Assembly: GCF_054482595.1 (NCBI RefSeq)
Contig: NZ_CM137008.1
Strand: one strand, 5' to 3'
Length of the DNA stretch: 64,000 nucleotides
Shown: piece after piece, positions 8,804 to 51,708 of the stretch
Position numbering within the stretch: the stretch's first letter is position 1
Layout: each line of letters starts with the position of its first letter
Program-made: the position numbers and the translations under genes
Notes under the pieces: model-generated
What the model was told of the DNA's origin: nothing
Databases searched by the model: none
The model's input: only the letters and a program-made list of their open reading frames with translations

Positions 8804-9210
8804 GTGAAAAGGTGGTGTTCAGTCAACTGAGCCGTAAATTTATTGATGAGAACGATGCCACGCCCGCCGAGGCGCAGCAGGTGGTCTATTACAGCCTGGC
8901 GATTGGTCACCACCTTGGGGTTATCGATTGCCTGGAAGCGGCGCTCACCTGCCCATGGGATGACTATCTGGCATGGATTGCCACTCTGGAGGCGGGCAGC
9001 GAAGCCCGCCGCAAAATGGAAGGCGTACCGAAGTACGGTGAGATCGTCATCGACATTAACCATGTGCCGATGCTGGCCAATGCATTCGATAAAGCCCGGG
9101 CAGCGCAAACTTCGCAGCAGCAGGAATGGAGTACAATGCTGTTAAGTATGCTGCATGATATTCATCAGGAAAACGCCATCTATTTGATGGTGAGGAGACT
9201 GCGTGACTGA
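8800..9210 (+). CDS. hycH: HycH, FHL complex maturation/assembly protein (136 aa)
   Basis: ORF-track protein and operon position; overlaps hycG stop by 4 nt. Confidence 0.9.
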
Positions 9211-19956: not shown

Positions 19957-21471
19957 ATGAGTTTTTCCGTTGATGTGCTGGCGAATATCGCCATCGAATT
20001 GCAGCGTGGGATTGGTCATCAGGATCGTTTTCAGCGCCTGATCACCACGCTACGTCAGGTGCTGGAGTGCGATGCGTCTGCGTTGCTACGTTACGATTCG
20101 CGGCAGTTTATTCCGCTTGCCATCGACGGTCTGGCAAAGGATGTACTCGGTAGACGCTTTGCGCTGGAAGGGCATCCACGCCTGGAAGCGATTGCCCGCG
20201 CCGGGGATGTGGTGCGCTTTCCCGCAGACAGCGAATTGCCCGATCCCTATGACGGTTTGATTCCTGGGCAGGAGAGTCTGAAGGTTCACGCCTGCGTTGG
20301 TCTGCCATTGTTTGCCGGGCAAAACCTGATCGGCGCACTGACGCTCGACGGGATGCAGCCCGATCAGTTCGATGTTTTCAGCGACGAAGAGCTACGGCTG
20401 ATTGCTGCGCTGGCGGCGGGAGCGTTAAGCAATGCGTTGCTGATTGAACAACTGGAAAGCCAGAATATGATGCCAGGCGATGCCACGCCGTTTGAAGCGG
20501 TGAAACAGACGCAGATGATTGGCTTGTCCCCTGGCATGACGCAACTGAAAAAAGAGATTGAGATTGTGGCGGCGTCCGATCTCAACGTCCTGATCAGCGG
20601 TGAGACGGGAACCGGTAAGGAGCTGGTGGCGAAAGCGATTCATGAAGCCTCGCCACGGGCGGTGAATCCGCTGGTCTATCTCAACTGTGCCGCACTGCCG
20701 GAAAGTGTGGCGGAAAGTGAACTGTTCGGGCATGTGAAAGGAGCGTTTACTGGCGCAATCAGTAACCGCAGCGGGAAGTTTGAAATGGCGGATAACGGCA
20801 CTCTGTTTCTGGATGAGATCGGCGAGTTGTCGTTGGCATTGCAGGCCAAGCTGCTGAGGGTGTTGCAGTATGGCGATATTCAGCGCGTTGGCGATGACCG
20901 CAGTTTGCGGGTCGATGTGCGCGTGCTGGCGGCGACTAACCGCGACTTACGCGAAGAGGTGCTGGCAGGGCGATTTCGCGCTGACTTGTTTCATCGCCTG
21001 AGCGTGTTTCCACTTTCGGTGCCGCCGCTGCGTGAGCGGGGCGATGATGTCATTCTGCTGGCGGGGTATTTCTGCGAGCAGTGTCGTTTGCGGCTGGGGC
21101 TCTCCCGCGTGGTATTAAGTGCCGGAGCGCGAAATTTACTGCAACACTATCGTTTTCCGGGGAACGTGCGCGAACTGGAACATGCTATTCATCGGGCGGT
21201 AGTGCTGTCGAGAGCCACCCGCAACGGCGATGAAGTGATTCTTGAGGCGCAACATTTTGCTTTTCCTGAGGTGACGTTGCCGACGCCAGAAGTGGCGGCG
21301 GTGCCCGTTGTTAAGCAAAACCTGCGTGAAGCGACAGAAGCGTTCCAGCGTGAAACTATTCGTCAGGCGCTGGCACAAAATCATCACAACTGGGCTGCCT
21401 GCGCGCGGATGCTGGAAACCGACGTCGCCAACCTGCATCGGCTGGCGAAACGTCTGGGAATGAAGGATTAA
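19957..21471 (+). CDS. norR: NorR, NO-responsive sigma54-dependent transcriptional activator (504 aa)
   Basis: GAF domain, AAA+ sigma54-interaction domain ([14 protein letters not shown]), C-terminal HTH; start at [18 protein letters not shown] (ATG 19957) so the ORF does not run over its own binding sites. Confidence 0.93.
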
Positions 21472-22433
21472 ATAATCCCGGCCTGATAGAAATCCTGCAG
21501 GTTAATTGCGCCGGTGAGTTTGCCGTTTTCATCTACCACCGGTGCGGCAGTGATTTTGCGCTTCATCAGGATCTCTTTGGCGTCGATGGCGCGACTTTGT
21601 GCCTGTAATGTGGTGCCGCCTGTCGTCATCGCTTCATTGACTGGCGTGGTGAGTGCGCCGCCGCCAACCAGCCAGCGACGTAAATCGCCGTCGGTAAAGA
21701 CGCCTTGTACCTGTTGTTGAGCGTCACATACCGCCACCAGCCCCAGACCGGTGCGGCTGAGTTCCAGCATCGCATCCATCACGCTGGCGGTTAACGCCAC
21801 CTGTGGGATGGCATCGTCACGGCGCATCAGATGATGCACTTTATTCAGCAAGCGAGCGCCCAGTGCTCCAGCAGGGTGGGAGCGGGCAAAATCTTCTTCA
21901 TTAAATCCGCGCGCCTGCATGACTGCCATCGCCAGCGCGTCACCCATCATCAGGGTATTGACGGTGCTGGAGGTCGGCGCAAGGTGCATCGGGCAGGCTT
22001 CGCGTTCTACGGAGATATCCAGCACCGCTTTCGCCGCCAGGCCCAGCGGTGACGTCGGTTTGCCGGTCATCGCCAGCAGCGCGATAGATTTGTCTTCCAG
22101 ACGCGGAATAATCAGATCCAGTTCCTTCGCCCCACCGGAGTAAGAGATAAACAGCATCACATCGCGGCTTTCGATCATCCCCAGATCGCCGTGCAGCGCT
22201 TCTGCCGGATGGACAAAAAAAGCCGGTGTGCCGGTACTGGCAAGCGTTGCGGCGATTTTCTTACCAATGTGGCCCGATTTGCCAATTCCCGAAACCACCA
22301 CTTTGCCTTCGCAGTGCAGGATGATATTGGCGGCGCGAACAAAATCATCGCCCAGACGTTCCGGTAAACGGCTTGCTTCCTGCAATTCCAGCATTAACGT
22401 CTGACGTCCCGCGTTCAGTAGTGCTTCACTCAT
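21468..22433 (-). CDS. gutQ: GutQ, D-arabinose 5-phosphate isomerase (SIS + CBS domains, 321 aa)
   Basis: SIS domain motif [14 protein letters not shown] and tandem CBS domains; last gene of the gut/srl operon. Confidence 0.92.
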
Positions 22434-45354: not shown

Positions 45355-46419
45355 TTACTTAATGAATGGGCGGGTCAGCAGACCGACAGGGCCAGTGGTG
45401 TACCAGCGACGGTTGCCGCGACTGCGTGAGTCGCGCCCAACGGCCTGCGTCAGACGATCGAGGATAATGGCGAGGATCACAATCCCGACGCCGCCAACGG
45501 TGGCAAGCCCCATATCCAGACGACCGATACCGCGAAGTACCATCTGACCCAGCCCGCCGACGGCAATCATCGAGGCGATGACCACCATAGAAAGGGCCAG
45601 CATCAGCGTCTGGTTAACGCCCGCCATAATGGTCGGCATCGCCAGCGGTAACTGAACTTTGAACAGCATCTGGCGCGGGCTGGCACCGAATGAGCGCGAG
45701 GCTTCAATCAGATCCGCCGGAACCTGGTTAATCCCCAGAATGGTCAGACGGATAATCGGCGGCAGAGCAAAGATGATCGTCACCACCACGCCCGGCACGT
45801 TACCGATACCAAATAGCATGACGATTGGCACCAGATAAACAAACGCTGGCGTGGTCTGCATGGCATCAAGCAGTGGACGAATAATTTTCGCCGCTCGCGG
45901 ACTTCTCGCCAGCCAGATCCCCAACGGCAAACCGATGACGATACAGAACAGCAGGGCGGTTAACACCAGCGCCAGAGTCACCATTGCCTGCGACCAGGCA
46001 CCGATTGCGCCGATGGCAATCAGCGAAACCAGCGTCGCCACACCCATTCCGACCCCGGAAATCTGCCAGGCGATGAGAGCGAAAACGATAATCGCCACCG
46101 GTGCGGGCATACCCAGCAGCAATTGCTGGAAACCGTTGAGGATATAATCAACCGGAACGCGCACGCCCTGGAAGACGGGACGGAAATGGGTAACGACCCA
46201 GTCGATCCCTTCAGTGACCCAACTGTCGAGCGGGATCAGCGTTTTATGGAACGGATCGAGAATATTAAAATGCTCGACGTTTGGCGCAGGCGTACTGGTC
46301 AGCCAGTCAGCACCACCGCCGTCAGTCGGTGCAGTCGCCGGTGTACCCCAGGCGTCTGCGGATTGTGCGGCACTGTCCGCCGCTGGCGTGGTATCCCACG
46401 GATTATTTTGATCAGCCAT
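45355..46419 (-). CDS. proW: ProW, glycine betaine/proline ABC transporter permease (354 aa)
   Basis: [25 protein letters not shown]... followed by an ABC permease domain; overlaps proV stop. Confidence 0.93.
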
Positions 46420-47614
46420 TATTTACCCCCTCACGATCTAAAGCGCGCAGCAGCATTCCTTTCGAAATGATGCCGACATACTGTTGGTCCTCGTCGACCA
46501 CGGGCACCGCACAGGGTGCCTGTCCGACATGAGAGAGCAACTCGCTAAGAGGCGTTTGTGCATCGACTGCTAACGGCGCATCAATCAGCGCCGCATCAAG
46601 ACCTTGCTGCTGCGTTAACGCGGTTTTAAGCGAATCGATGGAGACAGCGCCGACAAACTTATTACCGCGTTCGATAACGTAGCCATATTCGCGATCTTCA
46701 TCCTGCAATAATTTCAGTGCCGAACGTGGGCCGAAGCCAGGGGTTTTACGAATTAAGCCATTTGGTGTCCGGCGGGCAATATCTTTCGCACTGAATACCT
46801 GACTAATATCAACGCCACGGAAGAAGGTACGGACATAATCATTCGCCGGATTATTGAGAATTTCATCCGGTGTGCCGACCTGTACCACTTCACCATTTTG
46901 CATAATGGCAATTCGGTCGCCAATACGCATGGCTTCATCGAGATCGTGGGAAATAAAGACAATGGTGCGCTGATGTTTCGCCTGTAATTTTACCAGCTCA
47001 TCCTGCATCTCGGTGCGAATTAATGGATCGAGCGCCGAGAAGGCTTCATCCATTAATAAAATATCCGGATTAATTGCTAACGCGCGGGCTAATCCCACAC
47101 GTTGACGCATCCCGCCAGAGAGTTCATCCGGGTAGCTGTGGGCATAATTTTCCAGCCCGACCTGACGCAGTGCATCAATGGCTTTTTCCCGGCGTTCTTC
47201 GGCATTAATTCCGGCCAATTCCATACCAAACGCAGTATTGTCCAGCACGGTCATATGCGGCATTAAGGCAAAGGACTGGAAGACCATCGCAATCTTTTTT
47301 CTGCGCACCTCACGGAGTTCGGCGTCGGATATTTTGGCAATATCCACACCATCAATCAGTACTTGCCCGCGGGTGGGTTCAATCAGGCGATTGAGAAGGC
47401 GTACCATTGTGGATTTACCCGAACCGGATAATCCCATGATGACAAATATCTCGCCTTCTTCAATGGCCAGACTGGCGTCTTTTACGCCAAGCGATAGCCC
47501 AGTTTTTTCCAGAATTTGTTCTTTTGAAAGTCCTTGTTCGATATATTTGAAAGCTCGCTGTGGATGCTCACCAAATATTTTATAAAGATTTTTAATTTCT
47601 AATTTAATTGCCAT
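46412..47614 (-). CDS. proV: ProV, glycine betaine/proline ABC transporter ATPase with C-terminal CBS domains (400 aa)
   Basis: Walker [13 protein letters not shown] signature LSGGMRQR, then CBS pair. Confidence 0.95.
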
Positions 47615-47969: not shown

Positions 47970-48938
<969 letters not shown>

Positions 48939-51083
48939 TTAAAGTGCACAGGAGACGCAGCCTTCAATTTCAGTGCCTTCCAGCGCCATCTGACGCAGGC
49001 GGATGTAATAGAGCGTTTTGATACCCTTGCGCCAGGCGTAAATCTGCGCTTTGTTGATATCGCGAGTGGTGGCGGTATCGGGGAAAAACAGCGTCAGCGA
49101 CAGCCCCTGATCGACATGGCGAGTCGCTTCCGCGTAGGTGTCGATGATCTTTTCTGCGCCGATTTCGTAAGCGTCCTGATATAGCGCCAGATTTTCGTTA
49201 GTCATAAACGGGGCAGGGTAGTAAACGCGTCCTGTTTTGCCCTCTTTGCGTATCTCTACTTTCGCCACAATCGGATGAATACTCGACGTAGCATGGTTGA
49301 TATAAGAGATAGAACCGGTTGGCGGCACCGCCTGGAGATTCTGGTTGTAAATGCCGTATCGCATCACGTCATCGCGCAGTTGCGCCCACATCTCACGGGT
49401 AGGTAACGTAATACCGCTGCGGGCAAACAGTTCGCCAACTTTCGCCGTTTTCGGCTGCCAGTTACCTTGCAGATATTGGCTGAAATATTCACCACTGGCA
49501 TAGCGTGACTGTTTGAACCCGGCGAAGGTTTGACCGCGTTCGCGCGCCAGCAACATCGAGGTACGCAGTGCGTGCCAGGTGATGGTATAGAAATAGAGAT
49601 TGGTGAAATCCAGTGCTTCCGGCGAACCATAAGCGATGCCTTCCCTCGCCAGATAACCATGTAAATTCATCTGCCCCAGTCCGATGGCGTGCGAGGCGGC
49701 ATTTCCGGCTTCGATGGAGGGCACGCTGCGGATATGACTCATATCTGACACCGCCGTTAAACCGCGTACGGCAGTCTCTACCGTGCGGGCAAAGTCGGGG
49801 GAATCCATGGTGTGGGCAATATTCAACGAACCTAAATTGCAGGAGATATCATGGCCTGTGCGGGCATAGTCGAGATTCTCGTTATACTCTGAGGCGCTGT
49901 TAACCTGCAAAATTTCTGAGCAGAGATTACTCATATTTATGCGCCCGGCGATAGGGTTAGCACGGTTTACCGTGTCTTCATACATGATGTACGGATAGCC
50001 AGACTCAAACTGGATTTCTGCCAGTCGCTGGAAGAAATCACGGGCGTTGAGGTATTTTTTGCGAATGCGTTCATCGGCAACCAGTTCGTCATAGTGTTGG
50101 CTGATGGCCACATCGGCAAACGGCTTGCCATAAACTCGCTCTACGTCATAAGGCGAAAACAGCGCCATCTGCGCATTCTCTTTTGCCAGATGGAAAGTGA
50201 TATCCGGGATCACCACGCCCAGCGACAGTGTTTTAATGCGGATTTTTTCGTCGGCATTTTCCCGTTTCGTGTCGAGAAAACGCAGAATATCGGGATGATG
50301 AGCATGTAAATAGACTGCACCAGCCCCCTGACGAGCGCCGAGTTGGTTGGCATAGGAAAATGCGTCTTCCAGCATTTTCATCACCGGAATTACGCCAGAA
50401 GATTGATTTTCAATACGTTTAATTGGCGCGCCCGCTTCTCGCAGATTCGACAGCAAAAATGCCACGCCGCCGCCGCGTTTCGACAGTTGTAGTGCGGAAT
50501 TTACCGCCCGGCCAATCGACTCCATATTGTCTTCAATACGCAGCAGAAAACAGGAAACCAGTTCGCCGCGCTGCTGCTTACCGCAGTTGAGGAATGTCGG
50601 CGTGGCTGGCTGAAAGCGTCCTGACAGCATCTCATCAGTGAGCTGCGTCGCCAGTGTTTCATCGCCTTGTGCCAGCGTCAGCGCCACCATCGTGACTCGA
50701 TCGGCAAAATCTTCCAGATAACGTTTACCGTCGAATGTCTTCAACGTATAGCTGGTGTAAAACTTCCATGCCCCGAGGAATGTCTGGAAACGAAAACCGC
50801 TGGTGTGTGCGTGGGCAAACAGCGTAATGACAAAGTCGCGAGGGTAGCGATTAAGAACGCTTTCATCATAGTAACCTTCGTTGACCAGCCAGTTCAGGCG
50901 CTGCTGCTGGCTACTGAAGGTCACACTGTTCGGACGCACATGCGTCGCAATAAAGGCGTCAACGGCCTGGCGGTCTTTATCGAACTGAATGCGACCTGCG
51001 CTATCGTAGAGGTTAAGCATCGCATTCAGCGCGTGATAATCCATCGTTTCCTGCGTCAGGCGTTCTGCGGTTGTCGTTGCCAA
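48939..51083 (-). CDS. nrdE: NrdE, class Ib ribonucleotide reductase alpha subunit (714 aa)
   Basis: [27 protein letters not shown]...; RNR large-subunit catalytic motifs including NLCSEI. Confidence 0.95.
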
Positions 51084-51466
51084 AATTCGGTTACTCCTTT
51101 ACGAACGTTTTCGATATCGCTTTGCGTACCCATGAGTTCAAAACGGTACAGCCACGGCACGCCGCATTTCCGGGCAATCACATCTCCGGCGCGGCCATAC
51201 GCCTCACCAAAGTTGCGATTACCCGAAGCAATAACGCCGCGCAGCAATGCCCGGTTATGCTCGTTGTTTAAAAAGCGAATTACCTGTCGTGGCACCGCGC
51301 CAGCCGTACCGCCGCCGCCGTAAGAGGGCACGATCAGGATGTAAGGCTCGTCTACCTGAATCCGTTCCCGCTCATTGAGCGGGATGCGCACCGCGGGCAG
51401 CCCTAAACGTTCGATAAAACGCTGCGTATTTTCGGAGCTGCTGGAGAAGTAGACGAGCTGGCTCAT
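51056..51466 (-). CDS. nrdI: NrdI, flavodoxin-like RNR Ib activation protein (136 aa)
   Basis: [30 protein letters not shown]...; 3' end overlaps the nrdE start by 28 nt. Confidence 0.93.
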
Positions 51467-51708
51467 GCACTGGCCGCGTGTGGCGCTGGATGCAGACGGT
51501 TAATCATGTCCGGACGGAAACCAGACCAGCTAAGATCGCCAGCAATCACTACCGGCAACTGACGAAAGCCCTGAGCACGCAACGCTTCTGCCGCTTCAGG
51601 AACGCGATCGACATTAATCATTTCAAAATCAAAGCCCCGGTTTTCCATCGCCCGTTTGGTGGCGTGGCACTGAACGCAATCGTTACGAGTGTAAATAGTA
51701 ATGCGCAT
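51463..51708 (-). CDS. nrdH: NrdH, glutaredoxin-like redoxin (81 aa)
   Basis: [26 protein letters not shown] with CVQC active site. Confidence 0.95.

Follow-up and report, generated by a model that had tools for sequence, protein, structure and literature searches.

The nrdHIEF locus and the nrdI/nrdE junction

The sequence analyzed, referred to below as the window, is a 64,000-nt stretch of contig NZ_CM137008.1 (NCBI RefSeq assembly GCF_054482595.1). It is E. coli DNA that matches strain XH990 (NZ_CP019359.1) over its full length save for three bases. In both the open reading frames (ORFs) and the RefSeq annotation, nrdH, nrdI, nrdE, and nrdF follow one another in this order on a single strand, which identifies the locus as the nrdHIEF operon of class Ib RNR. 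The first gene of the operon, nrdH (51463..51708, minus strand), shares a 4-nt ATGA overlap with nrdI (51466..51056, minus), which encodes the 136–amino acid (aa) flavodoxin-like NrdI. The next gene, nrdE (51083..48939, minus), starts with TTG and encodes the 714-aa alpha subunit of class Ib RNR. The ends of both genes were taken from the ORF list and from RefSeq annotation, in the case of nrdI that of a near-identical strain. The beta subunit gene nrdF (47970..48929, minus; annotation mapped from XH990 with an offset of 1124097) begins after an annotated gap of 9 nt from the nrdE stop.

The identity of the two overlapping genes was assessed by homology. Homologs 98 to 99% identical to the window NrdI carry PF07972 in precomputed Pfam assignments. 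Residues 1 to 200 of the window NrdE match Salmonella NrdE [Protein Data Bank (PDB) 1PEM] end to end from residue 1 (phmmer E = 3.9e-114), and the protein also matches B. subtilis NrdE (6CGL). The ends of nrdI and nrdE given by RefSeq/PGAP for XH990 and K-12 C600 are identical to those in the window. Between K-12 and the window, a single base of the overlap differs (GAACGCC→GAATGCC); the change is silent in nrdI and corresponds to R8C in NrdE.

In E. coli P276M (NZ_CP044293.1; 90.6% identity to the window), frameshifted or partial pseudogenes are annotated throughout the region from ygaP to nrdE; an error-rich assembly, not biology, seems to be the reason. Separately, proteins of 216 and 240 aa that contain both glutaredoxin (PF00462) and NrdI (PF07972) domains are called as NrdH-NrdI fusions. 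These may be genuine, or they may have arisen as frameshift or assembly artifacts where nrdH and nrdI share the 4-nt ATGA.

The dual-coding overlap between nrdI and nrdE spans 28 nt (51056..51083, minus), as the earlier note had reported and as both the sequence and the RefSeq annotation confirm. In the NrdI frame, it encodes the end of the protein, (F)WQRQPQNA, followed by the TGA stop (51056..51058, minus); in the other frame, it encodes the NrdE N terminus. The nrdE TTG (51081..51083, minus) is composed of the third base of a NrdI Phe codon (TTT, 51085..51083) and the first two bases of the adjacent Trp codon (TGG, 51082..51080), i.e., ttT TGg. A Shine-Dalgarno (SD) sequence, AAGGAG (51094..51099, minus), lies within the NrdI Lys-Gly-Val codons, 10 nt 5′ of the TTG. 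Since an in-frame TAA (51099..51101, minus), five codons upstream of the TTG, closes the nrdE frame, a start located further upstream is impossible. Only two starts are thus available ahead of the conserved N-terminal helix of the window NrdE: the TTG and an in-frame ATG at Met14 (51042..51044, minus), 11 nt past the nrdI stop. The latter is preceded by AGGA (51052..51049, minus) with a 4-nt spacer.

The overlap among the gene junctions of the window

To place this overlap among its neighbors, we used annotation of the window-equivalent region. No other same-strand overlap in the window is as long as that of nrdI/nrdE (28 nt); the rest measure 1 to 11 nt. Overlaps of 1 nt are found at hypC/D and hycF/G and overlaps of 4 nt at hycB/C, hycG/H, norV/W, srlA/E, yqaB/A, and nrdH/I. 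Overlaps of 8 nt occur at hycH/I (approximately 9203-9210), srlR/gutQ (approximately 22426-22433), and proV/W (approximately 46413-46420). The hypB/C overlap is 10 nt (approximately 373-382, mapped annotation), and that of ygaZ/H is 11 nt, as previously claimed. The statement in the earlier note that most junctions overlap by 1 to 4 nt is broadly right, but gutQ/srlR, which it placed there, overlap by 8 nt, and the 8- to 10-nt class was overlooked. The convergent genes norR and gutQ overlap at their 3′ ends by 4 nt (approximately 21468-21471, mapped annotation).

In published surveys, 4-nt overlaps make up ~45% and 1-nt overlaps ~15% of same-strand overlaps (PMC3887535). The class with a length of 1 modulo 3 ("phase 2") is 87% short, and its long members constitute roughly 9% of all overlaps (PMC3887535). 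A long overlap in the frame class of the 28-nt nrdI/nrdE junction is, therefore, uncommon but not rare. Mechanical ORF calling extends a gene to the furthest upstream start; because of this, an overlap alone proves nothing about the start that is used.

Conservation of the TTG start inside nrdI

To evaluate the two candidate starts comparatively, we collected nrdI/nrdE junctions from 80 species-representative genomes and anchored them on the start of the conserved helix, Asp-Tyr-His-Ala-Leu. When the sampling was widened with E. coli NrdI as the protein query, only close Enterobacteriaceae relatives were recovered; a second query reached Mycobacterium. Firmicute junctions (Bacillus, Staphylococcus, and Streptococcus) lie outside this sample.

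The NrdI end contains a Phe-Trp motif (G-V-x-E-F-W-Q) in 76 of the 80 loci. In 72 of 80, a TTG lies inside the NrdI Phe-Trp codons, in the nrdE frame, and this frame is open through to the conserved helix. These 72 loci come from Enterobacterales, Halomonadaceae, Pseudomonas oryzihabitans, and several Actinobacteria (Dietzia, Cellulomonas, Leifsonia, and Myceligenerans). The conserved TTG is the sole in-frame ATG, GTG, or TTG in 39 of them. The ATG equivalent to Met14 is kept in only 5 of the 72; most other genera have Leu, Pro, Thr, Ala, Gly, or Arg at this position. The earlier note had proposed comparing the NrdE start with downstream start codons; in this comparison the TTG is conserved and the Met14 ATG is not, which rejects a downstream start that would remove the overlap.

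The use of synonymous codons in nrdI follows the same pattern. The NrdI Phe codon is TTT in all 72 TTG loci, compared to a mean TTT usage of 41% in nrdE of the same genomes. In genomes of 60 to 68% GC, TTT accounts for 1 to 10% of nrdE Phe codons, and yet the Phe codon of the overlap is always TTT. The NrdI Gly codon four positions upstream is likewise GGA or GGG at all TTG loci (background GGR usage, 24%), which yields GGAG or GGGA upstream of the TTG. Naive probabilities of these patterns are ~1e-40 for TTT and ~1e-47 for GGA/GGG, calculated by treating the loci as independent of shared ancestry. GGAGT is invariant wherever the overlap is 28 nt long (29 loci). In these 29 loci, the entropies at nrdI codon positions 1, 2, and 3 are 0.49, 0.48, and 1.47 upstream of the SD and 0.58, 0.80, and 0.54 within the overlap. 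The nrdI wobble signal thus collapses in the overlap, where the nrdE wobble position is the most variable one.

The nrdI stop is found at a variable distance from the conserved TTG (7 to 52 nt), with 29 loci at 28 nt and 23 loci at 19 nt. The part of NrdE between the TTG and the helix also varies, with 15 different lengths of 11 to 37 codons among the 72 loci, in frame every time. In Enterobacteriaceae bacterium RIT691, nrdI stops earlier (after EFWQR), the overlap is 13 nt, and the TTG and the SD are unchanged. This locus illustrates that the position of the nrdI stop drifts independently of the nrdE start.

NrdE proteins from the ten Actinobacterial loci are 73 to 76% identical to E. coli NrdE, on par with those of Halomonadaceae. 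This level of identity is consistent with horizontal transfer of nrdHIEF between Actinobacteria and Gammaproteobacteria, and the TTG-in-Phe-Trp arrangement may have traveled with the cluster in several Actinobacterial loci.

Overall, a start is conserved at the TTG without a conserved alternative, and nrdI synonymous sites are constrained at both the SD and the start. Because the TTG and its SD are conserved against codon usage, the overlap is functional. On these comparative grounds, we consider it highly probable that the overlap is genuine and that translation of NrdE starts at the UUG (51083..51081), directed by AAGGAG 10 nt upstream.

Lineages with a relocated nrdE start

Lineages that place the nrdE start elsewhere act as natural controls. 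Morganella and three Photorhabdus (four loci) have TTC for the NrdI Phe, GGT for the Gly, and an nrdE ATG located after the nrdI stop. The four Phe-Trp loci with TTC are exactly those in which the nrdE ATG lies beyond the nrdI stop.

In three Mycobacterium species, nrdE starts with a GTG located 15 nt further downstream, still within nrdI and with its own SD, GGAAGGAG; the NrdI Phe codon is TTT in one of these species and TTC in two. Brevibacterium has a GTG at the homologous position, and its NrdI has Leu-Cys there. In Corynebacterium, the overlap is lost; the genes are separated by ~90 nt, and nrdE starts with ATG. Mycobacterium persicum and M. xenopi NrdE are 1129 to 1139 aa long and have Hint and LAGLIDADG matches, because of which they are taken to contain an intein; the 721-aa M. 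lepromatosis NrdE lacks an intein.

Initiation signals, RNA structure, and the NrdE N-terminal tail

The strength of initiation signals along the operon was estimated from predicted duplex energies with the anti-SD. The nrdE TTG has the strongest one in the operon, −8.2 kcal/mol, followed by nrdF (−6.1 kcal/mol), the Met14 ATG (−4.3 kcal/mol), nrdH (−3.5 kcal/mol), and nrdI (−1.7 kcal/mol). The RNA of the junction is less structured than shuffled sequences [minimum free energy (MFE) z = +1.69; 196 of 200 shuffles reach an equal or better fold], and the mean unpaired probability around the TTG is 0.50. The consensus fold of a 14-genus alignment has an energy of −0.51 kcal/mol and zero covarying pairs, and a conserved helix is absent from it.

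In an AlphaFold2 model built with a 31-sequence alignment, NrdE residues 1 to 10 form a coil with a pLDDT below 50, and the first helix comprises residues 16 to 25. Both the length and the sequence of the tail vary across taxa. Given this predicted disorder and variability, the start seems to have kept its position because of expression and not because the tail has a structural role.

Alternative accounts of nrdE initiation

Several other accounts of how nrdE is initiated were weighed against use of the UUG. The first is that, in E. coli and Salmonella, translation begins at both sites, yielding full-length NrdE from the UUG and a form lacking 13 residues from ATG14, i.e., two proteoforms. As an initiation site, a UUG whose SD is 10 nt away is suboptimal, and ATG14, located 11 nt past the nrdI stop, is at a favorable distance for reinitiation and may serve as an additional start in E. 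coli. Each of the two sites comes with an SD-like motif, and their mean unpaired probability is equal (0.50); in E. coli, ATG14 seems to be fixed, and Salmonella has it as well. This codon is, however, lineage-restricted (5 of 72 loci), and given the predicted disorder of the tail, the second form would be without an obvious functional consequence. The start-site and N-terminomics datasets searched (TRAINSPOTTER, INRI-seq, and Salmonella riboproteogenomics) do not contain nrdE, and no internal nrdE start was found in them. A search of full-text literature for the nrdI/nrdE overlap or an nrdE TTG start returned nothing relevant. We regard dual initiation as unlikely.

A more elaborate version, which concerns E. 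coli and Salmonella and which we hold to be rather unlikely, has NrdE made from the conserved UUG and from a lineage-specific Met14 AUG that ribosomes terminating on nrdI could feed. In a wider sense, elongating nrdI ribosomes could occlude the nrdE ribosome binding site (RBS) located inside nrdI. If this were true, the ratio of NrdE proteoforms would depend on nrdI translation, and transient occlusion of the nrdE RBS would set the low-NrdI/high-NrdE output of the operon.

The earlier note had suggested that long overlaps imply translational coupling or reinitiation that fixes subunit stoichiometry. Applied to this junction, ribosomes terminating at the nrdI TGA would step 28 nt back to the UUG, thereby fixing the NrdE/NrdI ratio. 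The two genes are co-transcribed and overlapping, and the SD close to the nrdI stop could catch post-termination ribosomes; in general, subunits of complexes are enriched among overlapping pairs (PMC10666635). Distance speaks against this scenario. Overlaps predictive of coupling are up to 8 nt long, and stop-start distances of −8 to +10 nt are treated as coupling-predictive (PMC10666635), compared to 28 nt here and 7 to 52 nt in orthologs. In reporters of native E. coli gene pairs, in which distances were measured for starts downstream of the stop, reinitiation efficiency was decreased by 40 to 80% at 14 nt and was about nil at 38 nt (PMC10666635). Since the TTG-to-stop distance varies widely around the same TTG and SD, it is not under selection. 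Moreover, with the SD of nrdI being the weakest in the operon, NrdE would be undersupplied if its synthesis were coupled to nrdI, and there is nothing structured at the junction for a ribosome to unwind.

The pairing of subunits does not favor a fixed NrdE/NrdI ratio either. In class Ib RNR, NrdI is a flavodoxin that activates NrdF; it binds NrdF, not NrdE, and is not a stoichiometric partner of the latter. The true partner subunits are NrdE and NrdF, and 9 nt lie between their genes. The stoichiometry reading is weakened by this. As formulated, coupling that fixes stoichiometry is thus unsupported, given the variable stop distance, the strong SD of nrdE itself, and the lack of structure. Some form of nrdI-nrdE coupling may exist, but reinitiation by back-stepping ribosomes at the UUG is, in our estimate, quite improbable as the explanation, and we infer that back-scanning is at most a minor contributor to nrdE initiation.

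According to the other possibility raised earlier, the start is misassigned; NrdE would begin at ATG Met14, there would be no overlap, and the TTG would be an accident of maximal-ORF calling. ATG outperforms TTG as a start codon, AGGA is located 4 nt upstream of this ATG, and the +11-nt distance from the nrdI stop matches short E. coli intergenic spacings (PMC10666635). Met14 is retained in K-12 and Salmonella NrdE, and the variant without Met14 carried by one draft genome has zero counterparts in the 5,414 complete genomes of E. coli, although polymorphism of ATG14 was bounded only indirectly in this way, by exact-match counts over ~5,400 genomes. Residues 1 to 13, which would be lost, are predicted to be disordered. 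The comparative data speak against this reading. An ATG is found at this position in 5 of the 72 loci in which the TTG is universal, and in 39 of them the TTG is the sole candidate; the TTT and GGA synonymous constraints are explained only by the use of the TTG and its SD; codon periodicity within the overlap follows the nrdE frame; and the SD of ATG14 is weaker, with a short spacer. Taken together, these data place the start of translation in the nrdE frame at the TTG and reject misassignment for the gene family; a Met14-only start in the window is very improbable indeed.

Coupling through structure, with the nrdE RBS hidden in a conserved hairpin, was rejected given the z score of the junction and the missing conserved helix. 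A programmed frameshift that would fuse NrdI to NrdE at A-AUU-UUG-G was rejected on inspection: relative to nrdI, nrdE lies in the −1 frame, and once a ribosome had slipped by −1 from UUU-UGG, tRNA-Phe on AUU and tRNA-Trp on UUG would both re-pair poorly. A frameshift is also unneeded, as the data are already accounted for by the conserved SD and start.

Discussion

Our analysis favors initiation of NrdE at the conserved UUG. Both the SD AAGGAG and the UUG of nrdE are written into the C-terminal codons of NrdI (Lys-Gly-Val and, further on, Glu-Phe-Trp). The nrdE start is a non-ATG codon because NrdI Phe-Trp (UUU-UGG) leaves UUG as the only option in the nrdE frame. In our interpretation, selection acts on the SD and the UUG rather than on how far away nrdI stops, and the 28-nt length is a by-product of the length of the NrdI tail after Phe-Trp in Enterobacteriaceae. 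Initiation most likely occurs at an SD-directed, unstructured internal site on the nrdHIEF mRNA, to which ribosomes finishing nrdI would make a secondary contribution at most. Initiation of nrdE thus appears to be largely independent of nrdI termination.

The overlap is an ordinary internal-RBS junction that is known and already present in standard annotation. The long-standing annotation of a 714-aa NrdE with a TTG start and a 28-nt overlap with nrdI is confirmed. The biological significance is small, and no new question is opened. Nevertheless, the junction is a clean case of dual coding that fixes a non-ATG start, with Phe locked to TTT and Gly to GGA even in high-GC genomes. Start-site prediction can be validated against it, and it can guide the design of nrdI or nrdE deletions and expression constructs. 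When the 3′ end of nrdI is recoded or deleted, the nrdE SD and start (51081-51099, minus) are removed, and translational polarity on nrdE is expected in nrdI knockouts that take the last ~50 nt of the gene.

The gene order of the window is the same as in annotated E. coli and Salmonella nrdHIEF. Compared to RefSeq E. coli nrdHIEF, the gene ends and both overlaps, 28 nt for nrdI/nrdE and 4 nt for nrdH/nrdI, are also the same; the window copy is ordinary and differs in nothing. Mycobacterium offers a similar but distinct arrangement. There, too, the nrdE start is located inside the 3′ end of nrdI, the overlap is 31 to 34 nt, and the SD lies in NrdI codons. In contrast to the window, the start is a GTG, the SD GGAAGGAG falls within codons for Trp-Lys-Glu, and there is no constraint on the Phe codon.

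Short-overlap coupled pairs (ATGA or TAATG) share with nrdI/nrdE the same-strand arrangement of neighbors and the location of the downstream initiation region inside the upstream coding sequence. Their overlaps are typically 1 to 8 nt, unlike the 28 nt observed here (PMC10666635, PMC3887535). Two further differences are that the nrdI/nrdE stop-start distance is unconserved, ranging from 7 to 52 nt, and that NrdI and NrdE are not partner subunits. Among same-strand overlaps with a length of 1 modulo 3, nrdI/nrdE is a long member of a frame class that it shares with the common 4- and 1-nt overlaps. According to PMC2478687, long overlaps are often suspected to be start mispredictions; unlike such suspected cases, the nrdI/nrdE overlap is validated by conservation.
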